NCBI GenBank assembly: GCA_964585855.1
Contig: CAZPFK010000005.1
Span: 1,807 to 65,806 of the forward strand
Origin: an uncultured Vicinamibacteraceae bacterium
GTDB taxonomy: Bacteria > Planctomycetota > Phycisphaerae > Phycisphaerales > UBA5793
DNA: 64,000 nucleotides
Reading direction: 5' to 3'
The translations under genes and the position numbers were made by a program. The notes under the pieces were generated by a model that ran no database searches, had not been told where the DNA came from, and was given only the letters and a program-made list of their open reading frames with translations. Positions 15,535 to 64,000 of the stretch are shown here, piece after piece. Position 1 is the first letter of the stretch. Each line of letters begins with the position of its first letter.

Positions 15535-15535
15535 G

Positions 15536-16934: not shown

Positions 16935-16979
16935 GCCATCTCCCGGCAATCTCCGACCTCCCTCACCTACAGTTGCTGC

Positions 16980-18197: not shown

Positions 18198-18199
18198 CC

Positions 18200-18236
18200 G
18201 GGGGGAAGTGGGGGGCGCAGGAGGGGAAGCGGGGGG
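18200..18236 (+). other. G-quadruplex-type motif (four G runs of 6, 6, 4 and 6) inside a purine-rich tract.
   Basis: GGGGGGaagtGGGGGGcgcaggaGGGGaagcGGGGGG starts 3 nt after the ribB stop, in the 196-bp spacer before pilT. Confidence 0.5.
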
Positions 18237-18393
18237 AACAAGAGGGAATAATTGTCGGCGGCAGAGGATTCTCCGAAGCCGCTCCAGTGTCGCGACGTCG
18301 GCTGACGCTCCTTCACGGTTCCCGTGAGGCGGTTGTCCCCGTAGAATCGGCACCGGTCCGCGACCTGACCGCCCGACACGCAGGAGATCGAAC

Positions 18394-19536: not shown

Positions 19537-19660
19537 CCGCGCTCGCCGCAGTTTTCCCGCCGGGCGGCTATGATCGCTCCGGTGCCCGCCAGCCCCCGGC
19601 CCCGGACTCCAACAGCCCCGTTGCTCTCTCCAAGGACTGACGAAGCGAGATTCACCGTTC

Positions 19661-28719: not shown

Positions 28720-30138
28720 TCAGGCAATGGCCGGCTCCGCCGCTGATCTCTCCGGCTCCATGACTGCCTTTTCAGGCGTCTCGCGACGTTGAACGGTGAC
28801 GACGAGGATGTCATCCAGCGATGAGCCGTTGCGGTAGCGTCGCACCGCTTCAGGAACGAACTCCACCAACGGACCGCCCTCCTGCAGATCCCAGGCCGCG
28901 ACGATCCGCTCCAGCCCGTCGATTCCCAGCTGGCGGCCGCGTGCGTCGGCGGCCTCACAGGCCCCATCGGTGTAGAGCAGCAGCGTGTCGCCGGCTTCGA
29001 GGGTGAGCGATTGTGAGTCGGCCTCGAACTCCCCATCGTCGCAGACGCCAAGCAGGAAGGTCGTCGAGTTGAGCCGTTCCACGCGGCCGTCGCGGCGGCG
29101 CAGCAATGCGGGCGGGTGACCGCAGTTGCACCACTCGAGCCGACCCTCGCGGTCGAGGGTGAGCCAGAAGCCGGTTGCGAAGATGCCGTGGCGCGCCAGT
29201 GTGAGGGTGAGGTAGCGGTTGAGCCGGCAGATGAGGTCAACCGCAGCGCGGCCGGGGTTCTCGGCCAGGAGCCGGTCGAGTTCACCGATAATGCGATTGA
29301 CGGTCAGCGCGGCGCTGATGCCGTGCCCGGTGACGTCGATGAGGGCGATGTGGTGCCGGCCCTCCGGATCGCGATGGTAGTGGACGAAGTCGCCGCCGAT
29401 CTGCCGCATGGGCTCATATGAGTAGACGAATTCGAGGTCGCGGAGGCGCATGGGCGGGGGGAAGCGCGTCTCGTGAATCTTGCGCGCATCCAGCAGGGTG
29501 CGTCGGGCGGTATCGACACGCCGGCGCAGGACAACGAGGTTGAGCAGGGCGCTCAGTCGCCGGAATCGCCAGGCGCACAGCAGCAGCCCCGCGGTGCTGA
29601 GCAGTGCCGCCGATCCAGCAGAACTGATGACGGTGGTGGAGCCGGGCGTGTAGGTGATGGCGACGGCGACAAACCAGAGGGGGTAGATGATCAGCAGGGG
29701 GGCGAAGGCCTGCCGGGTGCGCCAGGGAAGCACGGCGCAGGACATCACATGGATGATCGAGAGGATGACAATCGAACGCGAGAGCGCGCCTTCCACGAAG
29801 GTGTCATCGGTCGCCCAGGCGCCGATCGAGCCGGCCAGCAGCAGAATCGCAATGCCGGCCAGGTCGAGGTAGGCGGCGGTCAGGATGCGATCGTTGCCGG
29901 AGCGACGCAGCCCCAGCGCGGTGAAGGCCACCAGGAGCATGGCTGCGAGGTGGGAGGCCAGGAGGATGACGGGGCCGAGAGAGATCGGCGCCCCTTCGGG
30001 CAGACTGAAGATGCGAAAGAGAAAGACCGAAGCGCCCAGGGCAAGAAAGAGAATCCACCCCGCCGAGAGCCAGAGGAAGCGGCGGCGCAGCAACACTCCG
30101 AACTCCCGGTCAACGTCGGCTCCCGGAAGGCGGGTCAT
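28720..30138 (-). CDS. Membrane-bound SpoIIE/PP2C-family serine phosphatase.
   Basis: About 8 N-terminal TM segments. GGDFVHYH...IALIDVTGHGISAALTV and LLLYTDGACEA. The start overlaps the upstream stop (ATGA at 30135-30138). Confidence 0.85.
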   Translation of the reverse strand: MTRLPGADVDREFGVLLRRRFLWLSAGWILFLALGASVFLFRIFSLPEGAPISLGPVILLASHLAAMLLVAFTALGLRRSGNDRILTAAYLDLAGIAILLLAGSIGAWATDDTFVEGALSRSIVILSIIHVMSCAVLPWRTRQAFAPLLIIYPLWFVAVAITYTPGSTTVISSAGSAALLSTAGLLLCAWRFRRLSALLNLVVLRRRVDTARRTLLDARKIHETRFPPPMRLRDLEFVYSYEPMRQIGGDFVHYHRDPEGRHHIALIDVTGHGISAALTVNRIIGELDRLLAENPGRAAVDLICRLNRYLTLTLARHGIFATGFWLTLDREGRLEWCNCGHPPALLRRRDGRVERLNSTTFLLGVCDDGEFEADSQSLTLEAGDTLLLYTDGACEAADARGRQLGIDGLERIVAAWDLQEGGPLVEFVPEAVRRYRNGSSLDDILVVTVQRRETPEKAVMEPERSAAEPAIA

Positions 30139-31586
30139 GGCGTCGCTCCTGCGGGAACTGGCGTCCGGGGGCGGGCGTCCGATGCGACACTGACCGGGGC
30201 GATCTCGGCAGCGACAATGAGCAGGTCCTGACCGGGCGGGCGATCCGTATCGCGGAAGGCGTCAAGACGGCGAAGCAGTTCCTGCGGCCAGCGGCGGGCC
30301 GGATGCGCCGGCATCGATTCGATGATCCGCCGCAAGCCCCTGAATCCCAGAACGCGGTTGTCAGCGTTGACCTCCGAGACGGCACCGTCGGAGACGGCCA
30401 GCAGCACATCGCCGGGCCCGAGGCGAGTGTGGCGCGTGGCGTGGTCGGCGGTGCAGCCCGGCTCCGCGCCGAGGGTCCATGAAGTTGATTCGAGCTGTTC
30501 GACGCCGCCGCCGCAACGGACGACAAACGCCGGGAGGTGGCCCGCGCCGGCCCACTCCAGTGTGCCGCCGGGAGTCATTCGGAAGCACATGGCGACGGCA
30601 AAGACGCCGTGCGGGGCCAGGGTGAGGTCGGCGTAATGGTTGAGGGCCTCGATGGCTTCGCCAGGGCGGTCGGCAAGCCCTTCGGCCGAGAGCCGTTCGA
30701 GTTCGCCGTGAATGCGGTTGACGGTGAGCGCTGCGGCGATGCCGTCGCCGGTGACGTCGAGGACGACGAGATTCAGTGAGCCGTCGGGCAACGTGGCCGC
30801 GTGCAGGTAATCACCGCCGATTCCGCTGCGCGGCCGATCGAGGAAGTTGAATCGGATGGGGCCGTCGAGGACTGGTGCGGGAAAGATGGCGGCGTGGATG
30901 GCCTGGGCATCGAAGAGTTCGCGTTGAAAGCCCTCGTCAAGGCGGCTGAGGACGCCGGTCTCGAATCGCTGACCGAAGGAGCGGTGGCGCCAGCGGCAGA
31001 AGAGCAGGCCCATGCCGAGGAAGAAGGCGCCGATGAGGCCGTTGCCGATGAGGGTTCCGATGGTGACCTGCTCGGCAAAGAGGAGTGTGGCGACAGCCCA
31101 GATGAGCCACAGGGCAATCGCGGGCTGAGCGGCCTGAAGCGGTGACCAGGGCAGCACGAGGCAGGCGAGGAAGTGGGAGAAGACGCTCAGGAGGAATCCC
31201 GGCGCCTGATCGACGCCGGAGGCAATACCGAAAGCGCGCGGCAGGAAGCGCGTCATCACGGTGACCGTCGCCACGGCGATGATGATCCAGAAGACCAGGC
31301 GGATCAACTCGGCGCGCCCGGTCAGGCGAGTGGCTCCCAGCCACAGGCCAAGCGCCAGGATCGCCGTCACGACGGTGCGCTCGATGAGCGTGACAGCGTC
31401 GGTCTGAATGGTGAGGCCGGCCGGCAGCCCGACAATCACCTCCCAGGCGAGCCCGATTCCGATGGCGGTCAGGAGGAGGATGTTGAATCCGAGCCAGAGC
31501 CCGACCCAGAGGGTGAAGCGTTGCCGGAAGAAGTCGGACAGCGCCGCTTCAAATTCAGCCGACATCCCCGGATCGCGCTGGTCCAT
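30135..31586 (-). CDS. Membrane-bound SpoIIE/PP2C-family serine phosphatase (paralog of 28720..30138).
   Basis: Multi-TM N-terminus. GGDYLHAA...LVVLDVTGDGIAAALTV and VLLAVSDGAVSE. Starts 9 nt downstream of the eno stop. Confidence 0.85.
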   Translation of the reverse strand: MDQRDPGMSAEFEAALSDFFRQRFTLWVGLWLGFNILLLTAIGIGLAWEVIVGLPAGLTIQTDAVTLIERTVVTAILALGLWLGATRLTGRAELIRLVFWIIIAVATVTVMTRFLPRAFGIASGVDQAPGFLLSVFSHFLACLVLPWSPLQAAQPAIALWLIWAVATLLFAEQVTIGTLIGNGLIGAFFLGMGLLFCRWRHRSFGQRFETGVLSRLDEGFQRELFDAQAIHAAIFPAPVLDGPIRFNFLDRPRSGIGGDYLHAATLPDGSLNLVVLDVTGDGIAAALTVNRIHGELERLSAEGLADRPGEAIEALNHYADLTLAPHGVFAVAMCFRMTPGGTLEWAGAGHLPAFVVRCGGGVEQLESTSWTLGAEPGCTADHATRHTRLGPGDVLLAVSDGAVSEVNADNRVLGFRGLRRIIESMPAHPARRWPQELLRRLDAFRDTDRPPGQDLLIVAAEIAPVSVASDARPRTPVPAGATP

Positions 31587-45513: not shown

Positions 45514-46647
45514 TCAGCCGATGATGATCACGTTCGACGTGCCGCACGTCGCGCCGTCAATGGCCTGAACGTGAATCCGATTGCAGGCGGCCTGGGGAAC
45601 GTTTCCGGAGATAGATGCGTTGCCGGAGCCGTTCGCATTCACAATCTGGATCAGAGTGACCGGAGCGGCCAGACCAGTCGTCGTGCCGGCGCAGGCGCCG
45701 CCCGGGATCACGAACGAGCCGGCGTTGTTGGACCGCAGGAACGCAACCGGGCCGCCCGGCGTTGCCCCTGTGGCCGATACGGTCTTGCTTCCCGGGCAGC
45801 CGGGTGACTGGCTGATGACAAAACCGCCGCCGCAATTGGGCTTGATGGCACCGTCGCTGGTCTCATACTCGGGGAGACCGGTGCCGAAGTTGAACGGGCC
45901 GATGACGTCAACGCGGGCCTTCGGGCCGGTTCCGGTCCAGAGCTCAGTCAGGAAGGCACCGGCGTTGAAGGCACAGTGGTAGAAGGTTCCTGAGCCGGTG
46001 CGGTCCGTCGTCGTGCCTTGGGCGAAGTTCGCATCGAACCCCTGGAAGGGCAGGAGCACCGCCGCTCCGACCGGGCCGGCCCAGCTGAACTCTGCATCAT
46101 TGACGAGATCCTGCGCATAGAAAGTGCCGCCTGCATCAATGGCCAGACCGGTACACAGTGCGGAGAACCCACCCGTCGTCGTCGAGCCGAGATTCGTCGC
46201 CAGGCCCGTCGTCAGGTTGATCGAGTAGATGTTGAAGTTCGGCACCGACGAGGACGCTCCGATTCCGTACATTGTGCCGGAGCCATGGTCAAAGGCCATA
46301 TCCGTAATGATCTGCCCGGACAGTACGCCGCCTGAGCCGATGAATGTCGCCGCCCCGGTGGACTGGCTGATGCTGTAGAGGCCGACAGCGCCGGTCTGAA
46401 CGTAGCCGTACAGGTTGCCGTTGCAGTCAAAGTCCATACCGGAGAAGAGCGAACCCGTGAAGCCGGTACGGCCGATGACCACATCGCTGAAGGCGGGAGC
46501 CGCGGCGTCAAAGGTGATGATGCGGTCCCCTCCTGGGCCGACGTTGAAATCGGCGAGGTTATCGGGCGCCCAGATGGTGGGGGCCGCAAAGGATGTGGCT
46601 CCAGCGAAGCACAACGACACGATAAAACCAGTTGCAGCAGACTTCAT
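45514..46647 (-). CDS. Secreted repeat (beta-propeller-like) protein, paralog A of a tandem trio, with a Cys-rich C-terminal domain.
   Basis: ATG at 46647 preceded by AAGGAGAG. Signal peptide then APTIWAPDNLADFNVGPGGDR. Repeated blade-like strings MDFDCNGNLYGY, MAFDHGSGTMYGIG and LAIDAGGTFYAQDL. Confidence 0.8.
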   Translation of the reverse strand: MKSAATGFIVSLCFAGATSFAAPTIWAPDNLADFNVGPGGDRIITFDAAAPAFSDVVIGRTGFTGSLFSGMDFDCNGNLYGYVQTGAVGLYSISQSTGAATFIGSGGVLSGQIITDMAFDHGSGTMYGIGASSSVPNFNIYSINLTTGLATNLGSTTTGGFSALCTGLAIDAGGTFYAQDLVNDAEFSWAGPVGAAVLLPFQGFDANFAQGTTTDRTGSGTFYHCAFNAGAFLTELWTGTGPKARVDVIGPFNFGTGLPEYETSDGAIKPNCGGGFVISQSPGCPGSKTVSATGATPGGPVAFLRSNNAGSFVIPGGACAGTTTGLAAPVTLIQIVNANGSGNASISGNVPQAACNRIHVQAIDGATCGTSNVIIIG

Positions 46648-46723
46648 GACTGCTCTCCTTCGTTGGTCCTTCAATCGTCCCGAAAGGAACACCCTTTCCG
46701 GCGACATATCCGGACCATCAGTT

Positions 46724-46751
46724 AATCTGCATCCGAAAACCAAAACGTCAA
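46724..46751 (-). promoter_or_regulatory. Sigma70-like promoter candidate for paralog A.
   Basis: Minus strand reads TTGACG, 16 nt, CAGATT, about 77 nt upstream of the start, followed by TGATGGTCCGGA, which is shared with paralog B. Confidence 0.35.
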
Positions 46752-46810
46752 GATGCCGCAAGTCACACGCCATCTGATTGCTGCAAGTCGGCCTGCGGAA
46801 TGGAGTTGCA

Positions 46811-46854
46811 GACGAAGAAAAAAGCATCGAGCGGCCCGGAAGGACCGCTCGATG
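46811..46854 (-). terminator. Intrinsic terminator for paralog B.
   Basis: CATCGAGCGG (46825-46834) pairs with CCGCTCGATG (46845-46854). Minus-strand T tract CTTTTTTCTTC. Near-identical to the element at 48193-48233. Confidence 0.75.
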
Positions 46855-46886
46855 GCTTGCCCGTGTGCAGGATTCATCCTGTTCCG

Positions 46887-48020
46887 TCAGAGAACGATAT
46901 GGACATTCGACGTCGCACAGGTCGTCTGGTCAACGGCCTGAAGCATCAGCCGGCCGCAGGCGGCATCCGGCAACGTTCCGCCGATGATGACGGTTCCATC
47001 GCCGTCGGCCTGAAAGGTGCCGACGAGAACGACCCGGGGGCCGAGGTCAAGCACGGTTCCGGCGCAGGGTCCGGTCGGCAGGGTGAAGTTGCCTCGGTTG
47101 AATGATCGGAAGAGGCAGACGTCTCCATTGGGGGTTGCACAGGTGATGCGCAGGCGGTAGTCGCCGGGGCAGTCGCCTTTGCCGGTCAGTTCAAGTTCGC
47201 AGGCGCCGCAATTGGGGCGAATCGCGCCGTCGCTGGTTTCATACTCAGGAAGGCCGGTGCCGAAGTTGAACGGACCGATGACATCTACGCGGGTCTTAGC
47301 GCCCCCGTAGGCCCCGCCCTCGTACTTCCACAACTCGCAGAGAAACGCCCCGCTGTTGAAAGCGCAGTGGTAGAAGTCGTCGTCTCCGGTGCGATCCGTC
47401 GTCGTGCCCTGGGCGAAGTTGGCGTCGAAGCCCTGGAAGCCGATGCTCACGCCCGCACCGACTGGGCCGGCCCAGACGAACTCAGAGTCTGAGATCAGAT
47501 CCTGACCGTAGAAGTCTCCGGCCGCATCGATGGCCAGACCGGTGCAGAGAACGCCGGTGGTGCTGACGGTGCCGAGGTTGGTGGCCACGCCGCTGCTCAG
47601 GTCGATCTCGTAGATGTTCGGATTGCTGAACGAGCCGATGCCGTACATCGTGTTTGCGTCGTGATCGAAGGCGATGTCGGTGATGATGTCGCCCGAGAGC
47701 ACGCCGCCGGAGCCGATGAAGGTGGCCGCGCCTGTGGACTGATCGATGCTGTAGAGGCCGACTGCTCCGGTCTGCACATAGCCGTACAGGTTGCCGTCGC
47801 AGTCAAAGTCCATGCCCGAGAAGAGCGAGCCCGTAAAACCGGTGCGCCCCACGACGGCGGGCACTGCCGGTGCGGCAGCGTCATAGGTGATGACGCGGTC
47901 ACCACCCGGGCCGACGTTGAAGTCAGCGAGGTTGTCGGGGGACCAGATGGTGGGACCTGCGGCCAGCATCGAGCCGGTCGTCATCGCTGCAACAACAAAA
48001 CCAGTGACACGCAATCTCAT
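46887..48020 (-). CDS. Secreted repeat protein, paralog B.
   Basis: ATG at 48020 preceded by AAAGGAGAG. GPTIWSPDNLADFNVGPGGDRVITYDAA and MDFDCDGNLYGYVQTGAVGLYSI. Its C-terminal Cys-rich domain is more diverged than in A and C. Confidence 0.8.
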   Translation of the reverse strand: MRLRVTGFVVAAMTTGSMLAAGPTIWSPDNLADFNVGPGGDRVITYDAAAPAVPAVVGRTGFTGSLFSGMDFDCDGNLYGYVQTGAVGLYSIDQSTGAATFIGSGGVLSGDIITDIAFDHDANTMYGIGSFSNPNIYEIDLSSGVATNLGTVSTTGVLCTGLAIDAAGDFYGQDLISDSEFVWAGPVGAGVSIGFQGFDANFAQGTTTDRTGDDDFYHCAFNSGAFLCELWKYEGGAYGGAKTRVDVIGPFNFGTGLPEYETSDGAIRPNCGACELELTGKGDCPGDYRLRITCATPNGDVCLFRSFNRGNFTLPTGPCAGTVLDLGPRVVLVGTFQADGDGTVIIGGTLPDAACGRLMLQAVDQTTCATSNVHIVL

Positions 48021-48099
48021 GGCTTCTCTCCTTTTGATTGGCTGTTTCCGGAAACTCCCGCGGATCACGCCTCGGGATTAAGTTTCCGGACCATCGTTC

Positions 48100-48128
48100 A
48101 GAATGCAATGAGAACCAGCCTCTGTCAA
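48100..48128 (-). promoter_or_regulatory. Sigma70-like promoter candidate for paralog B.
   Basis: Minus strand reads TTGACA, 17 nt, CATTCT, about 80 nt upstream of the start. Confidence 0.35.
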
Positions 48129-48192
48129 GGGAACAGAGTGCGAACGATGATCCGATCGTTCAGAAGATGCTGTAGATACTCGGGTTGAAGTT

Positions 48193-48233
48193 GCAGAAAA
48201 ATACATCGAGCGGCCCGGAAGGGCCGCTCGATG
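48193..48233 (-). terminator. Intrinsic terminator for paralog C.
   Basis: Perfect 13-bp stem CATCGAGCGGCCC / GGGCCGCTCGATG with a GGAA tetraloop (48204-48233). Minus-strand T tract TATTTTTCTGC. Confidence 0.85.
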
Positions 48234-48274
48234 AGTCAAATCAGAGTGCGAACCGAATCCAGAGTCAGCAGACC

Positions 48275-49396
48275 TCAGTTGAGGGTGATGACGTTGGACG
48301 TGCTGCAGGTCGCGCCGTCAACGGCCTGAACTTCGATCACGCCGCAGGCGGCCGCAGGGACGTTACCGGAGAGGACCGCAGTGCCGGAACCGTTGGCATT
48401 GACGATCTGCACCAGGGTCACGGGAGCGGCCAGACCGGTCTGCGTGCCGGCGCAAGCGCCGCCGGGGATCACGAAGTTACCGGGGTTGTTGGAGCGGATG
48501 AAAGCAACCGGACCGCCGGCGGTGGCGCCGGTGGCGGTGATGCTCTTGTTGCCGGGGCAGCCCGAAGACTGATCGATGGAGAAGCCGCCGCCGCAGTTGG
48601 GGACGATGGCGCCGTCGCTGGTCTCATACTCGGGGAGACCGGTTCCGAAGTTGAACGGGCCGATGACGTCAACGAGGGTCTTGGGGCCGGTGCCGGTCCA
48701 GAGCTCGGTCAGGAACGCGCCGGAGTTGAAGGCACAGTGGTAGAAGGTGTCATCGCCGGTGCGATCGGTCGTCGTGCCCTGAGCGAAGTTGGCGTCGAAG
48801 CCCTGGAAGCCCAGGCCGGTGCCGGCGCCGACCGGGCCGGTCCACACGAACTCCTGGTCCGTGATGAGATCCTGACCGTAGAAGTTGCCGGCCGCGTCGA
48901 TGGCCAGACCGGTGCAGAGGACGCCGGTGGTGCTGACGGTGCCGAGGTTGGTGGCCAGACCGGTGCTCAGGTTGATCGAATAGATGTTCGGATTGCTGAA
49001 CTGGCCAATGCCGTACATCGTGCCTGAGTCGTGATCGAAGGCGATGTCGGTGATGATGTCGCCGGAGACCAGACCGCCGGACCCGATGAGGGTCGCAGCG
49101 CCGGTGGACTGATTGATGCTGTAGAGGCCGACGGCGCCGGTCTGAACGTAGCCGTAGAGGTTGCCGTCACAGTCGAAGTCCATACCGGAGAAGAGCGAAC
49201 CGGTGAACCCGGTGCGGCCGATGACCACGTCACTCGTGGCGGGGTTGGCGGCGTCGAAGGTGATCACTCGGTCACCGCCGGGGCCGACGTTGAAGTCAGC
49301 CAGGTTGTCCGGAGCCCAAATGGTCGGGGCTGCAAAAGCGGCCGACGACACTGTAGCAAAACCGATAGCAACAAGAAGGTTCTTCACTTTACTCAC
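48275..49396 (-). CDS. Secreted repeat protein, paralog C.
   Basis: GTG at 49396, or GTG at 49387, which sits 8 nt after AAGGAG. The sequence is very similar to paralog A along its whole length. Confidence 0.8.
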   Translation of the reverse strand: MSKVKNLLVAIGFATVSSAAFAAPTIWAPDNLADFNVGPGGDRVITFDAANPATSDVVIGRTGFTGSLFSGMDFDCDGNLYGYVQTGAVGLYSINQSTGAATLIGSGGLVSGDIITDIAFDHDSGTMYGIGQFSNPNIYSINLSTGLATNLGTVSTTGVLCTGLAIDAAGNFYGQDLITDQEFVWTGPVGAGTGLGFQGFDANFAQGTTTDRTGDDTFYHCAFNSGAFLTELWTGTGPKTLVDVIGPFNFGTGLPEYETSDGAIVPNCGGGFSIDQSSGCPGNKSITATGATAGGPVAFIRSNNPGNFVIPGGACAGTQTGLAAPVTLVQIVNANGSGTAVLSGNVPAAACGVIEVQAVDGATCSTSNVITLN

Positions 49397-49665: not shown

Positions 49666-51249
49666 TCAGATCCCGCCCGCCGTCCCCGTCTCGCCGCGGC
49701 TCCGGCATCGCGCCACCACGATCGTGATGTCATCGGGCTGCTCGTTGAAGCCGAGGAATCGCCGCGCCTCCCAGTACACATGGTCCACGATCCCCTGAGC
49801 CGTCGCATCCGCGTGCTCGGCCAGGTACGTCCGCACCGCCTGCTGCGCTGCATCCTTTCCGAAGCGCCGGCCTTCGAAGTTCATCACGTCGGTCAGCCCA
49901 TCCGAGTACACGACCAGCACATCGTCGGGACGCAGATGGAAGATGCCCTTCTCATACCGTTCCGTCGGATCGATCCCCAGCGCCATCCCGCCCACATCAA
50001 GCGTCGAGGTCTCGATCGTGCCGCCGGGTGAACGACGGAAAATCCACGGCCGCTCATGTCCGGCATTGGCGTAGGTGAGCCGCGCGTGCATGGGATCGAA
50101 GACGCCGTACCACAGGGTTGCGAACTCCTCCTCAAGCGTGTCCTGAACGAGGGCGCGGTTGGTGCGCGCCATGACACCATCGAGGTCGTAGAGATCCAGC
50201 GCGTGTGCCCGCAGACTGGCCCGGACCGAGGCCATCAGCAGCGCTGCCGGGATGCCCTTGCCCACGACGTCGCCCAGCGCCAGGCCGACACTTTGGCCCA
50301 GTGCGATGAAGTCGAAGAAGTCGCCGCCCAGTTCACGTGAGGGCAGGTAGCGCGCTGCAAACTCGATCGTCGGTAAACTCGGCAATTTCTGCGGGAGCAT
50401 GCGCTTCTGCACATCAGTCGCCAGCCGCAACTGCCGCTTCATTTCCCGCTCCGCCCGACGCTCCTGTATCAGCCGGGCATTCACCACGGCGACCGCAATC
50501 TGCTGGGCCGCGAGGCGCAGCAGATCCCGCTCATGCGGGTCGAAGCGACGGACGCTGCGCGTAAAGAGCCGCATCACACCGACGGCCTTGCCTCGGAACA
50601 TGATGCCCGTACAGAGGAAACTCCGCAGCCGCTCGCTCTCGACAAGGTCGGGAAAGCGCACGCGATCGTCGGTGCGAAGATCCTCCACGTACACGACCTC
50701 GCCTGCGAGCGCTGCCTGGTCCAGTTCGCTGTCGGCGGCGAAGACGGGCCCGCGTTCCCGATAATCCTCCGAGAGGTTCATCCAGGCCGTCGGTACCAGG
50801 ACGCCCGTATTCTCATCCAGCAGACGGATTGATCCGGCGTCCACCTGCATGACCTGGATCACGACCCGCAGGGCGCACTCCAGGATCTCCTGCACCGATG
50901 CCAGTCCGGCCAGTGCCGCGGAGACGCGGTAGACGGCCGCGAGCTCCGAGACCCGGTGGATCAGCTCATCCTCTTCGGTAAGTATCGTGCCCAGGACGTC
51001 GGCGGCGAAATCCAGCCATCGCTGGAGGTCGGCTGTCGGTGTGGCGGCGGATTCCGGTCCCCGAAGCCAGCCGACGGTCCGCCCGCCGAGGCGAAAGGGA
51101 GAGCAGGGGGTCGATTCGGGGGAGGTGGGGCCCCAGTGGATACTCAACGGGGCATCGAGAAGGCCCGAAAGTGCGCGGACAAAGTCAAGGGCCCGTTCCT
51201 GCCCCGCAGGAGGCTGAGCGGGGTCGGCAGTCGTTGGTGGGATGGTCAT
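49666..51249 (-). CDS. GAF-domain SpoIIE/PP2C-family phosphatase (cytoplasmic).
   Basis: ATG at 51249. GAF-like VDAGSIRLLDENTGVLV...VYVEDLRTDDRV. PP2C strings GGDFFDFI...GLALGDVVGKGIPAALLM and VLVVYSDGLTD. Confidence 0.85.
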   Translation of the reverse strand: MTIPPTTADPAQPPAGQERALDFVRALSGLLDAPLSIHWGPTSPESTPCSPFRLGGRTVGWLRGPESAATPTADLQRWLDFAADVLGTILTEEDELIHRVSELAAVYRVSAALAGLASVQEILECALRVVIQVMQVDAGSIRLLDENTGVLVPTAWMNLSEDYRERGPVFAADSELDQAALAGEVVYVEDLRTDDRVRFPDLVESERLRSFLCTGIMFRGKAVGVMRLFTRSVRRFDPHERDLLRLAAQQIAVAVVNARLIQERRAEREMKRQLRLATDVQKRMLPQKLPSLPTIEFAARYLPSRELGGDFFDFIALGQSVGLALGDVVGKGIPAALLMASVRASLRAHALDLYDLDGVMARTNRALVQDTLEEEFATLWYGVFDPMHARLTYANAGHERPWIFRRSPGGTIETSTLDVGGMALGIDPTERYEKGIFHLRPDDVLVVYSDGLTDVMNFEGRRFGKDAAQQAVRTYLAEHADATAQGIVDHVYWEARRFLGFNEQPDDITIVVARCRSRGETGTAGGI

Positions 51250-51547
51250 CGGGTGGCTGGAAGTCAGGGTATCCGGCGGCCTCGGAGCGTCAACGTGTGC
51301 GCAATTCTCAAGAGCGCACGGGGCCCGGTCCGGACGACATCGGCCTAGAATGGCGGCCCGTCTTGCCGCGGGGGTCGTGTTCCCGGCCGGGATCGCCGAT
51401 GGAGGGTCATGGCGGCCCCCGAATCTGGCCGATTCGACAGAACAGATTCGTTCGTCTCTGCGGACATCGGAGCCCCCGCACAATTCGACATCTCAGTCTC
51501 ACTCCCGTCTCCGCATAAAACCGGAGGCGACTTCAGGAAATCGCACG

Positions 51548-57151: not shown

Positions 57152-57835
57152 TCAGCCGACGACCGGCCGGTCGATGACCATGACCTCATCGAGCGGCTTG
57201 CGTGTGATGGCCGGAACCATGCAGCCCTCCGCCGGGTAGCCGACAGGGATGAGCAGGTAGGGACGTTCATGCGCCGGTCGGCGCAGGATTTGTGCAAGGA
57301 ACTTCATCGGACTTGGCGTGTGCGTCAGAGTTGCGAGGCCGGCATGGTGTGCGGCGGCCAGCAGCAGGCCGACGGCGATGCCGACGGACTCATCGACGTA
57401 GTAGACCTGCCCGCCCTGATCAGTTCGGACGAGCTTGAAGACGACGATGAGCCAGGGAGCAATTTCCAGGAAGGGCTTGTGCTCATCCGTACCGAGCGGG
57501 TGCAGATCGGCCAGCCAACGCTCTGACGCTCGGCGTGTGTAGAACTCGCGCTCCTCGGCTTCGGCCGCCTCACGGATCTCCCGCTTGATCGCCGCATCCC
57601 GGACGGCGACAAAGCGCCAGGGCTGGATGTTGGCGCCGGAGGGGGCGGTGGCGGCGGCGGCGATGATGGTGCGGATCAGTTCCTCGGGTACATCACGGTC
57701 AGAGAAGTCGCGGACGGAGCGGCGTTGCGCCATGATCGTGCGGAAGCCCTCCACGGCGGCCAGCGGATCGCCGGGCGGGAGATAGGGCCGCAGCGGAGCC
57801 ATGACCGGCGGCTTGGGGTGATCGGGGGCGGCCAT
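57152..57835 (-). CDS. Nitroreductase-superfamily flavoprotein (iodotyrosine-deiodinase-like subgroup by motif resemblance).
   Basis: RRSVRDFSDRDVPEELIRTIIAAAATAPSGANIQPWRFVAV and PWLIVVF. Confidence 0.85.
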   Translation of the reverse strand: MAAPDHPKPPVMAPLRPYLPPGDPLAAVEGFRTIMAQRRSVRDFSDRDVPEELIRTIIAAAATAPSGANIQPWRFVAVRDAAIKREIREAAEAEEREFYTRRASERWLADLHPLGTDEHKPFLEIAPWLIVVFKLVRTDQGGQVYYVDESVGIAVGLLLAAAHHAGLATLTHTPSPMKFLAQILRRPAHERPYLLIPVGYPAEGCMVPAITRKPLDEVMVIDRPVVG

Positions 57836-58001: not shown

Positions 58002-61000
58002 ATGCCGGTTACGACAGAAACTTTCCGCAATCAGAACGTGCTTCACCGGGTCTTCGCAGTCGCGTCGATGCTGCTGGTGCTCTCGGTGATCATCGCCGTG
58101 ATTCAGGACTGGAACCGGGAGTTCCGCCGGCCGCAGACGCAGGCCCGAATCTGGAACGGGGCGATGGCGCAGTTCGAGACGGAGATCGCCGAGTACAAGG
58201 CCGAGCAGGCGGACCTTGAGGCGAAGGAGTCGCAGCTGGCTGAGATGATCGCCTCGGTGGAGATGAGCGAAGAGTATCGCGAGCTGGAGTCGCGCATCGA
58301 GGAACTGACCGTCGCGCGGAACATGCTGGCCAAGAACCTCTCGCTGCACGTCACGGGCAACATTGCGCCGGTGCAGCAGCAGATTCAGAACCTCGAAGCG
58401 CTTCTTGACATCAATGAAGGCACCGACGAAGAGCGGCAGCAACTCCAGACGCTGCGCGATGAACTGAAGGGCTACCTCAGCCAGAAAATCGAAGGCGAAA
58501 ACCAGATCGCCGCATGGGATGCCGAGATCAGCGAGCTCAAGGGCAGGCAGCGGGAACTGCGAGCGGCCTTTGCCGATCTCGAAGCCCAGGTCACGCAGAT
58601 GAAGACGGATCTGGCCAAGAAGGTCGAGACCTTCAAGAGTTTCGAGCCCGACCTGGCCGGCCGCATCGGCAACTTTGTGCGCAATCAGCCGCTGCTTGAC
58701 TGGATGAACCCTTCGATCCGGGTCAAGCAGCAGCAGGTCACAGGCGTGCTGACGGACCTGAACGTGATGACGACCTTCACGCTGGACCGGTGCATGTCCT
58801 GCCACACCAACATCGACGATCCGAAGTTCACCGAAGAGGCGGTCATCGACTTCCTCGAGTCGCAGGTCGCCTCCGACGAAGGCGAGGCGGTGCTCGCCCT
58901 GGGCGACATCAGCCCTGTCACGGCGCTGGACTATTGGGAGAACTCCATCCTCGCCATCCCTGACAGCAGCGAGGGCGCCTCGCGCCGGCTTCGGATCGCC
59001 CGCCGGCAGGCGATGGAGTCCTTCAACCGCCTGCTCCGGCGCGCCGAGCCCGAACATGCCTTCGCCTCGGCCTGGAAGTCGCAGGAGGCGCCCGATGCTG
59101 AGAGCGTTCCGGTGCTTGAGGACGATGCCGATCTCCAGTCCTTCTTTGTACTCGTGCGCACCTCGTCGCAGCGTCCGCTGGACTGGCAGGAGTGGTACCG
59201 CCCGCTGACGGTCTACCGCACAATGCTGCACGAGATCGTGCGCGACACGCTCGATGAATCTGACTACCGCGCCTTCATGGACGGCTATCGCCGGGAGCTG
59301 ATCGCCCGATACAACGGCAACGCCGATGAGACCGGTCGTCGGAAGCTGGCGGCCGGCCGTGAGTTGCTGGCGCATCCGCGTCTTGATCTCTACGCCCACC
59401 CGGACTCGCGGCACCCAATCGCGACGATGGGGTGTACGAGCTGCCACTCGGGCTCGGGTGAGGAGACGCAGTTTGTGCACACGGCGCACACGCCGTCGGC
59501 CATCTGGGTCGATGAGGAGACGGGCGCTCTCGTGGCCGACTTCCAGGTCGCGATGACCGGCTCGAAATCCGACGTTTCGCGGGCATTGCTCAACGGCTCG
59601 GGCGAGGCCTCGGCGGCTGCGCCGGGCGAGGCGACTGTGCTGCAGGCGTCCTACGACGAAACCGCGTCAGAGCAGGACCCAGCCCACGACGAGGCGCATG
59701 GCGACGAGACAGCGCACGATCACGACCATGGGCACGGCCCGACAGTGATGGATGGCCGCTACTACTCCGACGCCTCAGAACTGGAGAATCCATTCGGCCC
59801 CATCGGCGCGTATGACCATGCCGAAGCGGCGATTTACGTCGATCCGGTGAGCGGGGAGCGCCGCCGCGCGGTGCATCAGAAGGATTACTGGAAGAAGCGC
59901 TACGGGTGGAAGCAGATCGAGTTCCACTACTGGGAGCGGCCGATGCACGAGCTCCGGTACGTGGAGTCATCCTGCATCCGCTGCCACACGGAAGTCGCGG
60001 AGATCGACCAGGAGGCGACGACGCTGGCCAAGGGCCGGGAACTCTTCACCGAGGTCGGCTGCATCACCTGCCACCCGGTGGAGGGTCTGGGCAGCCCGAT
60101 TCGCGGACAGCAGACAATCCCGGACGTCCGGCAGGTCGGGCCGAGTCTGGAGAACGTGCGGCACAAGCTCAGCGAGGAGATGATGGCCTCGTGGATCTGG
60201 GCGCCCAAGGCGCTGCGGCCCAACACGCGCATGCCGCACTACTTCATGCTGGAGAACAACTCCACGCCGCTGGACATCCGCCGCACCCGCGCGGAGGTGG
60301 CGGCAATGGCCCACTTCCTCGCCTCTGAGCCGCAAGACGCCGGCTGGACGCCGTCGGGCGACGCCTACGAACCTGCGCCGATTCCGCAAGAGGTGAACGG
60401 TTCGGCCTCACGCGGTCGAGAGCTCTTTGCATCGCTTGGGTGCCTTGCGTGCCACGCCAATGTGAACGAGCATGGGCAGGAGATGGTGGCGCTGGACCTG
60501 CAGGAGCGGTTCGGCCTTGATCGCGACGGCGCCCTGGCCCGCATGGCCGAGGATGCACGTGCGGTGGCGGAACTCCCCGACGCCTCGGAGGCCGATGAGG
60601 AGAACGTCGGCTTCTTCGAGCTTGATGAGTCCGGCCGGCCGACGACGCGCATCCGCCCTGATCAGTTCAATCGCCTGCAGTGGTACCTCATGGCGCACCA
60701 GTCGGAGGAGTACACGCGGGTCGGCCCCGATCTGTCCACGGTCGGCACCAAGCTGCTGACCGGCCAGAGCGAGGAGAAGGCGCGGCAGTGGCTCTTCAAC
60801 TGGCTGCTGGCTCCGGAGCACTACTCCAGCTACACGGTCATGCCCTCCTTCCGTCTGACCGAGCAGGAGTCGGCCGACCTGACCGAATACCTGCTGACGC
60901 AGAAGCATCCGCAGTATGAGATCGCGCCTTTCGAGGTCGATCCGCTGATGGTCGATGCGATCCTGATTTCGCTTGACCGCAATGCGATCTCGGAAGCCGC

Positions 61001-63926
61001 GGCGACGGCCCGTGTCGAGGCGATGAGTCTCGAGGAACGCCGGCTCGAACTCGGCAAGCGCATGATCCAGCACTACGGCTGCTACGGCTGCCACCAGATC
61101 GGCGGCTTCGACTCCTCGCTGACCGTCTCGGCCGACCTCACGACATGGGGCCGCAAGGACCCGCACAAGCTCGACTTCGGCTACTTCGATCACGCCTACG
61201 ACGATCGCCGGCCGCCGGATGCGGATGTCTGGACGACGCACCGCAGCGGCCTGGATGTGACGGCGCCGATGGTCACCGAGAAGAGCGTCGGCGAGGGCGG
61301 CATCGAGAAGAAGACCGTTCCGTGGGAGCACCTGCACATCGATCGGCGCGGATACCTCGAGTCGAAGCTGCACAACACGCGCATCTTCGACCGCAACCGC
61401 GCCTCGCTCGAAGGCGAGATGGCGGACGACGGCCGCACGATTCTGACCGACAAGGGCGGCCAGGGGCTGCGCCTTGTCGAAGAGAATGGGCGATTTATCG
61501 ATCTGGCGACCGGCGAGGACAGCGGACTTTCGGCAGATGAGGTGCGAATCGCGGGCCTCGGCGATCCGTATCTGAAGCTGCGTATGCCGACCTTCTTCCT
61601 GCAGGATGAAGAGGTGCATGCGCTGGTGACGTATGTGACGGGGCTTCAGCCCCCGCTGGTGCGTGCCGAGTTGCAGGACACGACCGATGAGTTCGGGCAG
61701 ATGCGTGCCATGGGCAAGTACATGGCCAAGGCCTTCAACTGCTACGGCTGCCACAACATCGAGCGCAACACCCCGCTGATCCAGCAGTATTTCACGATCC
61801 GAAACGACGACGGCTCGATGGATTACTCGGCAACGCAGGAGAACCTGACCAATGCGCCGCCGCGCATTGTCGGCAACGGCGCCAAGACGCAGCATGACTG
61901 GTTCTACACCTTCCTCTCCAACGTGGAGATGCTGCGGCCGTGGCTGGAAATCCGCATGCCCAGTTACAATCTGGAACCGGCCCACAATCAGTTCCTTGTG
62001 GAGTACATCGCCGGGCAGACGCGGACCGACAGCCGCCACCTCGAAGAGGCGCTGGCGCCGGTGAACAGCCGCGTGCGTCAGGCCTTCGAGACGACGTACT
62101 CAAAGACCTACGCCGACGCGGTCGCCTCCGGACAGGCCGGTATGGCCGCGGATACGCTGGCCAAGTCCGCCGCCTCGCTTGAGGCCGGACGGATTATGCT
62201 TGAGCCGGCCAACCGCACGGCGCGGCGGCATCTTGCCGAGCTGGCGTCGAAGTATCAGTTGTATTCGCCCAACCAGTTGCCCTCGATCGACATGCCCGAG
62301 GAGGAACTGGCACGGAAATACGGCCAGATCTGGTACGACTTCGCCTTCCTGCGCGATGCCTACGAGCAGGTCCACTATCCCTTCCAGGACAGCAAGCGCC
62401 CGGAACTCACGCCTGAACTGCACGCCCGGGGACTTGGCCTCGTCGAGACGCTGGGGTGCTTCAAGTGTCACGCCTTCGGCGACGAGGAGAAGCTGCAGCG
62501 CATCTTCGATCTCAAGCAGGAGGAGATGGCAGCGCTGATGGGCGACATGGGCGGCGATGATGAGGAGGGCTACGAGGGCTACGGCGACGAGGAGGGCTAC
62601 GGAGACGAGGGCGGGTACGGCGAGGAGGATGGGTACGGAGAAGACGACGGGTACGGAGACGAGGGTGGCTACGGTGACGATGACGGTTACGGCGAAGAGC
62701 CGACCGAGGCCCCCGAGCCGACGATGTACGACGCCATCACCGCGCCCAACCTCGCCATCGCGCACGAACGCCTGCACGCCTCCTTCTTCAAGAACTGGCT
62801 CCACAAGCCGCCGACGCTCATGCCCGGCACGAAGATGCCCAACCTCTTCGGGCCCGACGGCAACCAGAGCGCCTTTGCCGCCTTCCCCGAGCCGCAGAAG
62901 TCGGAGTACGAAGCGCTCTACGGCAAGACGGCCGATGAGCAGATCGAGCTGATCATCCGCTGGATGGAGGCGGCCGGCGCTGCGGGGTACACCTACGAGG
63001 AGGAGAAGTACCTCGCCGGTGAGTCTGCAGCTGCCGTCGATCGTCAGGCGATCCTCGACCAACTCGCCGCCGAAGCGGAGGCACAGGCAGCCGAGGAATC
63101 CGCCGAGTCCGGCGACGCAGGCGGCGTTATCGAGGAGGTCCCATCCGATGAGCCCGTCGAACAGCCGGCCGAGCAGCCGGCAGAGACGCCGGCCCCGGTC
63201 GAGGAGGCCCCGATGGAGATGAGCCAGGAGGAGAAGGCCTCCGCACGCGATGATGCCGTCAGCAGCGTGATGGATGGTGTTGCGGCCGGTGTGGGCCGGA
63301 TCGTGGGGGTGGTGGTGGCGGAGAATCCGCCGAGGCCACGACGCCTGCGGAACAACAATGCCGACTGCATCGCTGCCCGTTCAAGGATCGGGACGCCGCT
63401 CTTCGAGTCTGCTGTCACCGTCAACCGTAACGGCACGCTTTCGGATGTCGTTATTGGCGTCGGCAATCCTCCCGAAGGGGACTGGTCGCCGCCTTCAACG
63501 CCGGTTGTCATTGATCAGCTGGGCTGCGAGTACATCCCGCATGTCTCGGCTTCGATGACGGGGCAGAACATCGAGATCAAGAACAGCGAGCCGATTTCCC
63601 ACAACGTCAACTCGACGCCGCAGTTCAACCCTGCGTTCAACGTCAGCCAGCCCATGCAGGGGATGGTTCACAACGTCGTGATGGAGAAGCCCGAGGACGC
63701 CATTCGGCTCAAGTGCGACGTTCACACCTTCATGAACGCCTTCCTCTTCGTCTTCGAGCATCCCTTCTTCGACGTCACACGCACCGACGGCGTCTACGTG
63801 ATCGACAACCTGCCTCCCGGCGAGTACACCCTCGAAGTCTGGCACGAGCGTGGCGGGACGCAGACGGTGACAGTCACCGTCGAGGCCGGCAAGGCGGTGC
63901 GGCAGGATCTCACCGTCGCCTTCTGA
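58002..63926 (+). CDS. Giant membrane-anchored multiheme c-type cytochrome with an N-terminal coiled coil and a C-terminal cupredoxin-like domain.
   Basis: ATG at 58002 after GGAGAGG. TM segment VFAVASMLLVLSVIIAVI. A ~250-aa heptad-rich E/Q/L segment. Eight CxxCH sites at 58791, 59433, 59973, 60060, 60441, 61080, 61740 and 62457. The C-terminus carries H...CDVHTFM. Confidence 0.9.
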   Translation: MPVTTETFRNQNVLHRVFAVASMLLVLSVIIAVIQDWNREFRRPQTQARIWNGAMAQFETEIAEYKAEQADLEAKESQLAEMIASVEMSEEYRELESRIEELTVARNMLAKNLSLHVTGNIAPVQQQIQNLEALLDINEGTDEERQQLQTLRDELKGYLSQKIEGENQIAAWDAEISELKGRQRELRAAFADLEAQVTQMKTDLAKKVETFKSFEPDLAGRIGNFVRNQPLLDWMNPSIRVKQQQVTGVLTDLNVMTTFTLDRCMSCHTNIDDPKFTEEAVIDFLESQVASDEGEAVLALGDISPVTALDYWENSILAIPDSSEGASRRLRIARRQAMESFNRLLRRAEPEHAFASAWKSQEAPDAESVPVLEDDADLQSFFVLVRTSSQRPLDWQEWYRPLTVYRTMLHEIVRDTLDESDYRAFMDGYRRELIARYNGNADETGRRKLAAGRELLAHPRLDLYAHPDSRHPIATMGCTSCHSGSGEETQFVHTAHTPSAIWVDEETGALVADFQVAMTGSKSDVSRALLNGSGEASAAAPGEATVLQASYDETASEQDPAHDEAHGDETAHDHDHGHGPTVMDGRYYSDASELENPFGPIGAYDHAEAAIYVDPVSGERRRAVHQKDYWKKRYGWKQIEFHYWERPMHELRYVESSCIRCHTEVAEIDQEATTLAKGRELFTEVGCITCHPVEGLGSPIRGQQTIPDVRQVGPSLENVRHKLSEEMMASWIWAPKALRPNTRMPHYFMLENNSTPLDIRRTRAEVAAMAHFLASEPQDAGWTPSGDAYEPAPIPQEVNGSASRGRELFASLGCLACHANVNEHGQEMVALDLQERFGLDRDGALARMAEDARAVAELPDASEADEENVGFFELDESGRPTTRIRPDQFNRLQWYLMAHQSEEYTRVGPDLSTVGTKLLTGQSEEKARQWLFNWLLAPEHYSSYTVMPSFRLTEQESADLTEYLLTQKHPQYEIAPFEVDPLMVDAILISLDRNAISEAAATARVEAMSLEERRLELGKRMIQHYGCYGCHQIGGFDSSLTVSADLTTWGRKDPHKLDFGYFDHAYDDRRPPDADVWTTHRSGLDVTAPMVTEKSVGEGGIEKKTVPWEHLHIDRRGYLESKLHNTRIFDRNRASLEGEMADDGRTILTDKGGQGLRLVEENGRFIDLATGEDSGLSADEVRIAGLGDPYLKLRMPTFFLQDEEVHALVTYVTGLQPPLVRAELQDTTDEFGQMRAMGKYMAKAFNCYGCHNIERNTPLIQQYFTIRNDDGSMDYSATQENLTNAPPRIVGNGAKTQHDWFYTFLSNVEMLRPWLEIRMPSYNLEPAHNQFLVEYIAGQTRTDSRHLEEALAPVNSRVRQAFETTYSKTYADAVASGQAGMAADTLAKSAASLEAGRIMLEPANRTARRHLAELASKYQLYSPNQLPSIDMPEEELARKYGQIWYDFAFLRDAYEQVHYPFQDSKRPELTPELHARGLGLVETLGCFKCHAFGDEEKLQRIFDLKQEEMAALMGDMGGDDEEGYEGYGDEEGYGDEGGYGEEDGYGEDDGYGDEGGYGDDDGYGEEPTEAPEPTMYDAITAPNLAIAHERLHASFFKNWLHKPPTLMPGTKMPNLFGPDGNQSAFAAFPEPQKSEYEALYGKTADEQIELIIRWMEAAGAAGYTYEEEKYLAGESAAAVDRQAILDQLAAEAEAQAAEESAESGDAGGVIEEVPSDEPVEQPAEQPAETPAPVEEAPMEMSQEEKASARDDAVSSVMDGVAAGVGRIVGVVVAENPPRPRRLRNNNADCIAARSRIGTPLFESAVTVNRNGTLSDVVIGVGNPPEGDWSPPSTPVVIDQLGCEYIPHVSASMTGQNIEIKNSEPISHNVNSTPQFNPAFNVSQPMQGMVHNVVMEKPEDAIRLKCDVHTFMNAFLFVFEHPFFDVTRTDGVYVIDNLPPGEYTLEVWHERGGTQTVTVTVEAGKAVRQDLTVAF
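62551..62700 (+). repeat. Imperfect 18-nt tandem coding repeat giving about nine G-Y-G-(D/E)3 units.
   Basis: GGDDEEGYEGYGDEEGYGDEGGYGEEDGYGEDDGYGDEGGYGDDDGYGEE. Confidence 0.85.
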
Positions 63927-64000
63927 GGCGGCTCAGCGGCGGGCCTGCTCCCGGGCGTCGGTGACTTCGATGGAAGCAGGGGGTTCCTCGTCGGCGCCCC

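Follow-up and report, generated by a model that had tools for sequence, protein, structure and literature searches.

Cytochromes built in between a bc complex and an aa3 oxidase, and cupredoxins that act as electron carriers, are known from actinobacteria, acidophiles, and archaea. The actinobacterial dihaem cytochrome cc (QcrC) is part of complex III and delivers electrons directly to CuA of the aa3 oxidase with no soluble carrier, and the genes for the cupredoxins AcoP and rusticyanin of Acidithiobacillus ferrooxidans and for sulfocyanin of the archaeal SoxM supercomplex lie with or beside cytochrome c and cox genes. The cytochrome c domain of caa3 oxidases and membrane-anchored cytochrome c_y show how a flexibly tethered redox domain can move back and forth between partners that stay in place. 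Experiments have shown that cytochrome c4 passes electrons to AcoP in the respiratory chain of A. ferrooxidans (PMC5982212; PMC4059628). In anammox Rieske/cytochrome b complexes, multihaem c-type cytochromes take the place of cytochrome f, and the long helices of the octahaem Kustd1485 wrap halfway round the complex in an AlphaFold3 model (PMC12954380); multihaem cytochromes were also proposed as Rieske acceptors by Dibrova 2013, as that work is represented where PMC5317091 cites it. Multihaem c-type subunits of b6-type Rieske/cytochrome b complexes have thus been described already, and none outside anammox appears to have been characterised. Here we describe a gene at 58002..63926 (plus strand) of a 64,000-nt stretch of contig CAZPFK010000005.1 (assembly GCA_964585855.1), from an uncultured bacterium placed by GTDB in the Phycisphaerales; this whole stretch is called the window below. 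Its product is a membrane-anchored octahaem cytochrome c that carries a cupredoxin/CarboxypepD_reg module in the same polypeptide. The kind of system is already known; what is new is the enlarged, cupredoxin-fused, and operon-detached form of an octahaem cytochrome.

We regard it as rather probable that the window gene encodes a membrane-anchored periplasmic electron-transfer subunit linking a b6-type Rieske/cytochrome b quinol oxidase to an aa3 oxidase. In the mechanism we propose, the transmembrane segment and long helices would occupy the position of cytochrome f or c1 on the Rieske/cytochrome b6 dimer, docked there, and the mobile Rieske head would reduce a membrane-proximal haem. Electrons would then hop along eight haems, three of them probably bis-His and five His/Met, and would reach the type-1 copper of the tethered cupredoxin, which would swing to CuA of COX2 in the aa3 oxidase.

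Set beside the described systems, the window protein combines features of several. The Kuenenia stuttgartiensis hexa-/octahaem proteins Kustd1485 and Kuste4573 are likewise membrane-anchored multihaem cytochromes that follow Rieske, cytochrome b6, and subunit IV, and the long alpha-helices of Kustd1485 round its complex match, by description, the transmembrane segment and three long helices of the window protein. The anammox complexes carry NAD(P) oxidoreductase or HAO-like subunits, whereas the family described here is linked to the aa3 oxidase, CtaA/B, and a cupredoxin gene; unlike Kustd1485, the window protein is fused to a cupredoxin and detached from the operon. QcrC of the bcc-aa3 supercomplex offers an analogy as a membrane-anchored tandem class-I cytochrome c between bc and aa3, but the window protein differs in its eight haems, where QcrC has two, and in having a long helical arm and a terminal copper domain. 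AcoP, rusticyanin, and sulfocyanin can be likened to the copper domain in their role, as cupredoxins acting between c-type or Rieske/b donors and an oxidase; they are separate proteins with no CarboxypepD_reg domain and with mono- or dihaem donors. In contrast to caa3 oxidase and cytochrome c_y, the mobile domain in the window protein would be a copper protein, tethered to the donor cytochrome and not to the oxidase or directly to the membrane.

Evidence for a link to complexes III and IV comes from relatives of the gene. A search with the C-terminal domain alone led to a stand-alone homologue (P0029) in an operon (L005) with the order COX4-like, Rieske, cytochrome b, a subunit-IV-like membrane protein of 311 aa, a 1033-aa cytochrome c, P0029, CtaA, and CtaB. 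This 1033-aa cytochrome is collinear with the window protein, having a transmembrane segment, about 200 aa of coiled coil, and eight CxxCH motifs (DRCxxCH, GCxxCHxGxG, and so on), and BLASTP aligns the two at E 1e-25, other segments also aligning in the same order. When one genome from each of 185,579 species was scanned, at least 486 related loci emerged, of which the best 80 were kept. Among these 80, exactly eight CxxCH motifs occur in 71 open reading frames (ORFs), from Planctomycetota, Omnitrophota, Acidobacteriota, Methylomirabilota, Eisenbacteria, Binatia, and others, and in many loci tblastn matches span residues 1 to ~1970 of the window protein. The family has no curated model and is defined here from the L005 cytochrome and 70 further ORFs. 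Its plan is an N-terminal transmembrane anchor, ~200 residues of long helices, three CxxCH motifs with three His, and five class-I modules, and the window protein follows it, with the anchor and helices, eight CxxCH motifs in order, three His, and five Met-Pro motifs.

The genes around these cytochromes are those of complexes III and IV. Subunit IV lies within 1 kb upstream on the same strand in 34 of the 51 loci with at least 3.5 kb of upstream flank, and Rieske and cytochrome b precede it. COX1 is found within 6 kb in 26 of the 57 loci with at least 6 kb of downstream flank, and other loci run straight to CtaA/CtaB. In two related operons (L032 and L013), Pfam confirmed COX2, COX1, and COX3, with CtaA and CtaB following; the COX2 proteins of these operons have no cytochrome c domain by Pfam and would therefore need an external donor. 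Relatives in the Phycisphaeraceae and Tepidisphaerales (28-36% identity) have no Rieske or cytochrome b gene within 10 kb and stand directly upstream of COX2-COX1-CtaA-CtaB-COX3. A sequence-only reading of the window had matched this architecture to no characterised respiratory subunit; its collinear homologues turn out to be the fourth gene of Rieske/cytochrome b/subunit IV operons, followed by cupredoxin, cox, and ctaA/ctaB genes. Judged from sequence and gene order, the family is a widespread and biochemically uncharacterised group of octahaem cytochromes encoded between the genes for a Rieske/cytochrome b complex and those for an aa3 oxidase.

The cupredoxin module is a separate gene adjacent to and downstream of the cytochrome gene in most lineages, and part of the same ORF in Phycisphaerae-type loci only. 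This is Rosetta-stone evidence, and it suggests that the last haem and the copper are direct redox partners. One Phycisphaeraceae-type locus (L013) carries both a fused module (14705-15334) and a free copy as the next gene (15579-16376), just before COX2, which points to duplication followed by fusion. Fused and free copies probably occur also in the Phycisphaeraceae loci L014 and L017.

The gene as a whole and its haem-binding part comprise the following features:

58002..63926 (+): whole gene, membrane-anchored octahaem cytochrome c fused to a cupredoxin/CarboxypepD_reg module (GC at third codon positions 0.84; 15 homologues)
58791..58805 (+): haem site 1, CMSCH, residues 264-268, in an invariant DRCxxCH (100% conserved in the 71 ORFs)
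59373..59489 (+): haem site 2 region, CTSCH at residues 478-482 (nt 59433-59447) plus the invariant H458, H471, and H496
59973..59987 (+): haem site 3, CIRCH, residues 658-662, 29 aa before haem 4
59994..60401 (+): class-I module 4, CITCH at 60060, distal M744 in RMPH (PF00034, 32.1 bits)
60384..60911 (+): class-I module 5, CLACH at 60441, distal M947, with an insertion of ~85 aa (PF00034, 32.0 bits)
61014..61676 (+): class-I-like module 6, CYGCH at 61080, distal M1195, with an insertion of ~125 aa (PF00034, 19.4 bits)
61683..62036 (+): class-I-like module 7, CYGCH at 61740, distal M1319 (hhalign 95-96% to modules 5, 6, and 8)
62394..62981 (+): class-I-like module 8, CFKCH at 62457, distal M1612, split by an acidic repeat (hhalign 97.6% to module 4)

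The eight CxxCH motifs use 16 of the 19 Cys in the protein and are far beyond chance, because shuffled sequences contain 0.008 on average and one at most. Five (R/K/V)MP motifs supply the distal methionines, of which M744, M947, M1195, and M1319 are conserved in 100% of the 71 ORFs and M1612 in 96%. In the region of haems 1 to 4, exactly three additional His (H458, H471, and H496) are conserved in 100% of the same ORFs; this is the number needed as sixth ligands of haems 1-3, which makes them candidate distal ligands. The constant plan of the family is thus probably one in which haems 1-3 are bis-His and haems 4-8 are His/Met haems of class I. The whole protein scores 73.2 bits as a class I cytochrome c (PF00034/PF13442). 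Against the PF00034 cut-off of 21.3 bits, modules 4 and 5 lie above and module 6 just under, and modules 7 and 8 had no match in a module-by-module Pfam search. When modules were aligned with one another by hhalign, nine of the ten pairs reached a probability of 82-98%, the exception being modules 5 and 6 (53%); module 5 aligned with module 4 at 96%, and module 6 with the others at 53-95%. On these profile alignments, the five Met-containing class-I modules are homologous to one another.

Other cytochrome identities were considered as well. Cytochrome c554 (PF13435) scored 26.5 bits against a cut-off of 20.8, but the match spans just ~38 residues over haems 3-4. In the same region (residues 646-693) the Pfam scores for MtrC (25.4 against 30), c7 (23.8 against 24.8), and c3 (20.2 against 25 bits) were all under their cut-offs, and an MtrC-type identity was rejected on that ground. 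QcrC (NF050122) was rejected at 26 bits against 200, as were the cbb3 subunits CcoO/CcoP (TIGR00781, TIGR00782, PF02433) at 24-32 bits against 180-200, with FixO at 28.9 against 29.6.

The C-terminal module that would receive the electrons is laid out as follows:

63270..63923 (+): amicyanin-like cupredoxin plus CarboxypepD_reg beta-sandwich, residues 1757-1974 (AlphaFold2, Foldseek, and profile search)
63600, 63714, 63723, and 63732 (+): putative type-1 copper ligands H1867, C1905, H1908, and M1911 (invariant in 39 sequences)
63774-63917 (+): match to PF13620 (CarboxypepD_reg), residues 1925-1972

An AlphaFold2 model of this module, made with a 39-sequence alignment, has a predicted local distance difference test score (pLDDT) of 92.2 and a predicted template-modelling score of 0.88. 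Foldseek against the PDB placed amicyanin, the cupredoxin domain of NirK, plastocyanin, pseudoazurin, and CuA domains on top, at E values of 4e-5 to 1e-3; there were 39 matches at E<=0.001, and nearly all of the top 50 were cupredoxins. A sequence profile searched against solved structures matched 5fc9, a blue-copper protein of Nitrosopumilus (E 3e-5), 9cck, a NirK (E 9e-5), and several amicyanin entries (E about 2e-3), and these matches align the first His and the C-x2-H-x2-M loop (CTLHPWMK in 9cck, for example). The four putative ligands are invariant in both fused and free forms, and Asn follows the first His; we take this Asn and the 38/3/3 ligand spacing to resemble amicyanin. Likeness to amicyanin, plastocyanin, pseudoazurin, and NirK lies in the fold, in the ligand order His, Cys, His, Met, and in the amicyanin-type loop, with an identity to the window module of just 14-24%. 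In contrast to soluble type-1 cupredoxins, the window module is tethered, is packed with CarboxypepD_reg, and carries an extra invariant Cys (C1842) within a GCxYxPH motif. PF13620 scores 33.9-36.1 bits against a cut-off of 32.3, with only profile positions 33-81 and the last ~50 residues of the protein in the match, and the cupredoxin is modelled as packed with, or inserted in, this beta-sandwich. Our best reading of sequence and model is that the module is a type-1 copper cupredoxin with a putative copper site.

Stand-alone homologues of the module (P0021-P0041) are 230-300 aa long, and some are named 'plastocyanin' by their sources. A lipobox-like motif lies near the N-terminus in 12 of these 21, followed in ~10 of them by a P/A-rich leader, which suggests that the module is normally membrane-tethered by a flexible segment, as the 92-aa linker would do in the window protein. 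The wider module family has 5040 representatives at E<=1e-30, mostly of ~260 aa. The top of the profile list is inflated by giant proteins (P0044-P0060) of up to 6305 aa with 20-73 tandem CarboxypepD_reg-like repeats, which are unrelated to the cytochrome. One stand-alone module gene (P0032) overlaps by 4 nt the end of a gene for a di-haem CCP/MauG peroxidase (L007 4949-6756; L008 204-2011). This pairing suggests that the module serves more than one redox partner and fits an electron-donor role. P0032 is followed by a 350-aa unknown and a YceI protein.

The remaining features are the anchor, the helical arm, and the segments that set this protein apart from compact relatives:

58035..58112 (+): single N-terminal transmembrane helix, a signal-anchor, residues ~12-37 (Kyte-Doolittle hydropathy >1.6; AlphaFold2 helix 6-37)
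58119..58640 (+): three long amphipathic helices, residues 40-87, 90-136, and 142-213, ~175 residues in all (AlphaFold2 pLDDT 80-94)
58833..59336 (+): lineage-specific helical insertion domain between haems 1 and 2, residues 278-445 (all-helical in AlphaFold2, pLDDT ~85-95)
59598..59819 (+): disordered acidic His-rich insertion, residues 533-606, including DPAHDEAHGDETAHDHDHGHG (AlphaFold2 pLDDT <50; composition)
62549..62699 (+): (D/E)-G-Y-G acidic repeat inserted in module 8 (Tandem Repeats Finder; composition)
62994..63269 (+): flexible A/E/P/Q-rich linker, residues 1665-1756, 92 residues (55% A/E/P/Q, 28% D/E)

Strong hydrophobicity is confined to the N-terminal helix, in which F18 and L25 are invariant among full-length homologues; one further borderline window (Kyte-Doolittle >1.6) occurs at residue 1755. 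A fold search with the model of the N-terminal 750 aa returned just generic coiled-coil matches (SMC, MukB, EmrA), none at E<=0.001. The distance from the N-terminus to the first CxxCH is steady at ~245-290 aa in all lineages sampled and ends at residue 264 in the window protein. Beyond this point the spacing diverges. Successive haems are separated by 214/180/29/127/213/220/239 residues in the window protein, with a tail of 489 after the last, and by ~42/38-55/28/105/127/120/110 residues, with a tail of ~100, in the compact members (the 900-1050 aa cytochromes of Omnitrophota, Acidobacteriota, Binatia, and Methylomirabilota). The extra length comes from the helical domain, the acidic His-rich segment, insertions in modules 5-8, and the linker with its copper module, and the window protein is 1.3 to 2.5 times the length of complete related ORFs. 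Aligned with its relatives, the protein has been roughly doubled in length in this Phycisphaerales lineage by insertions between and inside haem modules.

The His cluster of the acidic segment (residues ~560-580) shows partial conservation within the clade, is missing from compact members, and could be a metal-binding patch. The (D/E)GYG repeat (residues ~1515-1568; 39% D/E, 28% G) is encoded by an 18/36-nt tandem DNA repeat and lies between the CxxCH (1486) and the Met (1612) of module 8. Relatives carry a repeat of DPYG type in the corresponding position, whereas the compact L005 homologue has no such repeat; calcium binding or partner docking would be speculative roles for it. The linker corresponds to the intergenic gap together with the signal or lipobox and P/A-rich leader of stand-alone homologues.

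The anatomy that the sequence-only reading had described is borne out by these results. The single membrane-anchored ORF of ~1970 aa is intact, its one transmembrane helix is the only strongly hydrophobic segment, and the stretch likened to a coiled coil is modelled as the three long helices. All eight haem sites lie exactly where they had been placed, the proposed split into three multihaem-type and five class-I-type sites agrees with the three extra invariant His and five conserved Met-Pro motifs, and the His-rich patch and the A/E/P/Q-rich linker were both recovered by composition. The GYG-acidic repeat is likewise real, at the level of both protein and DNA, but it lies inside module 8 and does not link domains. 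The beta-rich C-terminal domain with copper-site-like residues gained substance from the Foldseek and profile matches and the invariant ligands, and a periplasmic electron wire ending in a copper centre is still the best reading of the sequence.

The gene itself is one unbroken ORF of 1974 aa. Its codon-position GC (0.66/0.43/0.84) is typical of genes in the window, which is 65% GC overall, and its codon bias is uniform along its length. Upstream of 58002 the frame is open to an ATG at 57834, which overlaps the start of a nitroreductase gene; homologues share a conserved M1 P2 V3 T5 T7 at their N-termini, and so 58002 is taken as the start. Among 5.8 billion proteins searched, 15 proved to be full-length homologues (1944-2028 aa) at 46-49% identity and 100% coverage, drawn from NCBI, JGI, ENA, and Logan assemblies and labelled Phycisphaerales or Planctomycetota. 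In their alignment the eight CxxCH motifs, the five Met-Pro motifs, and the C-terminal Cys, His, and Met are invariant or nearly so. A further word-index homology search with a second alignment brought back nearly the same set of close relatives and added no distant ones with a name, and a PDB sequence search with the whole 1974-aa protein gave no match.

Upstream of the cytochrome gene the window contains genes for a GAF-SpoIIE protein, a UDP-glucose dehydrogenase, a DNA methylase, an Exo_endo_phos protein, an unknown, and a divergent nitroreductase, and these are syntenic with the Phycisphaerales metagenome-assembled genome (MAG) JB034 (L001). The rest of the window holds housekeeping genes only. 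The nearest neighbour is:

57152-57835 (-): nitroreductase-family gene, divergent, 166 nt upstream of the cytochrome gene

This pairing is kept in JB034 and not in L002. The 166-nt gap contains no sigma-70-like promoter, in a scan that is uninformative for Planctomycetota. At the other end of the gene, a minus-strand frame of 21 codons (63933-64000) runs uninterrupted from the edge of the window until a stop 7 nt past the cytochrome stop, ending …GADEEPPASIEVTDAREQARR before its own stop. This frame may be the tail of a convergent gene; that would agree with there being no operon partner downstream. The partners that the sequence-only reading had supposed to lie unseen downstream probably do not exist, since the syntenic JB034 locus has an opposite-strand sigma factor there; the last 66 nt of the window, a very short tail, show no recognisable similarity to that sigma factor.

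Elsewhere in the window, three tandem paralogues of 437, 393, and 373 aa, each with a partial DUF4394 match, lie at 45514-49396 (-). A 1443-aa protein resembling a single-module nonribosomal peptide synthetase (AMP-binding, PP-binding, thioesterase) is encoded at 2538-6869 (+); its N-terminal ~590 aa are unannotated, and it adjoins an O-antigen-ligase-like gene at 7732-8994. Three T2SSE/PilB-family secretion ATPase genes (562, 380, and 563 aa) cluster at 13846-21352 (+), with a fused ribBA gene (16980-18197) between the first and second. SpoIIE-type phosphatases are encoded by two tandem genes at 28720-31586 (-) and by a third, GAF-SpoIIE gene at 49666-51483 (-).

Several observations weigh against a role as the link between complexes III and IV. 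The window's 57.8 kb upstream of the gene contain none of the genes for Rieske, cytochrome b, subunit IV, cox, or ctaA/B, and neither do the flanks of 4-10 kb on either side of the gene in the four genomes most closely related (L001/L009, L002/L010, L011, and L012). Judged from these gene orders, the gene is detached from both bc and cox operons in this Phycisphaerales lineage, and its link to the two complexes is inherited from relatives. No curated cupredoxin model in Pfam or NCBIfam matches the C-terminal module. The AlphaFold2 model has pLDDT <50 around the haem regions and therefore gives no haem packing or haem-to-haem geometry. The helical domain at residues 278-445, the His-rich patch, and the GYG repeat get no explanation from the proposed mechanism. 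Finally, a connection to Kustd1485 by way of the only 'Kuenenia' locus (L066, labelled as a Candidatus Kuenenia stuttgartiensis MAG) was rejected, the GC of its contig being 52% and its gene order unlike that implied for Kustd1480-1485. The GC of Kuenenia is about 41%, and this contig is probably misbinned, so we did not use it as anammox evidence.

Alternatively, the window protein may stand alone as a periplasmic electron hub or capacitor, tethered to the membrane but no longer docked on a bc complex, an explanation that we take seriously while considering it unlikely. Any quinol dehydrogenase, such as alternative complex III, would be able to feed such a hub, which would pass the electrons to acceptors such as oxidases, peroxidases, or nitrite reductase through its copper domain. 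The gene is monocistronic and stands apart from respiratory operons in the window and in the closest relatives, insertions have doubled the size of the protein, the module belongs to a very large family, and the peroxidase gene directly before P0032 indicates that the module serves non-oxidase partners. In a hub, the extra domains (residues 278-445, the His-rich patch, and the GYG repeat) may add metal-binding or partner-docking functions. Yet the transmembrane and helical region, which is the expected bc dock, is strongly conserved and has the same length as in operon-encoded members, and the Phycisphaeraceae and Tepidisphaerales relatives still stand directly upstream of COX2-COX1.

It is more doubtful still that the C-terminal module is a copper chaperone or assembly factor for CuA/CuB, comparable to PCuAC or Sco, with the cytochrome alone carrying electrons; we consider this improbable. 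The module gene does stand immediately before COX2 and near CtaA/CtaB, PCuAC is also cupredoxin-like in fold, and the His-rich patch could capture metal. But the invariant His...Cys-x2-His-x2-Met with its Asn is the signature of a type-1 electron-transfer site and, as we understand it, differs from the chaperone motif H(M)x10Mx21HxM, and the best matches in both fold and sequence are redox cupredoxins. Covalent fusion to the end of a haem chain also suits a relay better than a chaperone, and the paralogue paired with a peroxidase stands beside an enzyme that needs an electron donor.

A substrate-oxidising or extracellular-electron-transfer enzyme, such as an Fe(II)/Mn(II) oxidase or a conduit out of the cell, would resemble the cytochrome-cupredoxin chains of iron oxidisers, and we judge it very improbable here. 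The many haems and the cupredoxin would suit it, as would acidic and His-rich low-complexity segments that could bind metal cations and the weak similarity in Pfam to MtrC, c7, and c554 around haems 3 and 4. However, the anchor places the protein in the inner membrane, no outer-membrane porin or MtrB-like partner accompanies it, and the MtrC, c7, and c3 scores fall under curated cut-offs. Furthermore, the family context is a bc complex and an aa3 oxidase in phyla with ordinary aerobic respiration, and the acidic and His-rich segments are clade-specific insertions and not family features. Lastly, an assembly or frameshift artefact fusing the cytochrome gene with the next gene, which the sequence-only reading had itself raised and which the separate neighbouring genes of most lineages might suggest, is refuted almost beyond doubt by the recurrence of the full-length architecture in 15 independent homologues from the four sources and of the fused ORF in at least 12 distinct genome loci, by uniform codon bias, and by a junction that is an in-frame linker of 92 aa and no short read-through.

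Our preferred reading, a subunit joining the quinol oxidase to the aa3 oxidase, can be extended to the family as a whole. More tentatively, as a possibility that we would not press, the family may be an undescribed link between complexes III and IV in which an octahaem cytochrome stands in for cytochrome c1 or f and a tethered copper protein for soluble cytochrome c, with the window protein a derived member that may have become an autonomous hub. Such a link would then extend across Planctomycetota, Acidobacteriota, Omnitrophota, Methylomirabilota, and Binatia. Limited literature searches found no description of the cupredoxin/CarboxypepD_reg partner or of its fusion.

How electrons exit b6-type Rieske/cytochrome b complexes in non-photosynthetic phyla that have no cytochrome f or c1 is known just from gene lists and from AlphaFold models of anammox complexes. 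The window protein joins a conserved octahaem subunit, a previously unremarked cupredoxin/CarboxypepD_reg partner with thousands of stand-alone relatives, and, through its relatives, an aa3 oxidase. It is also a single polypeptide in which haem-to-copper transfer could be measured. If our reading is true, it would provide a concrete, testable model of a hard-wired route from complex III to complex IV in abundant environmental bacteria.

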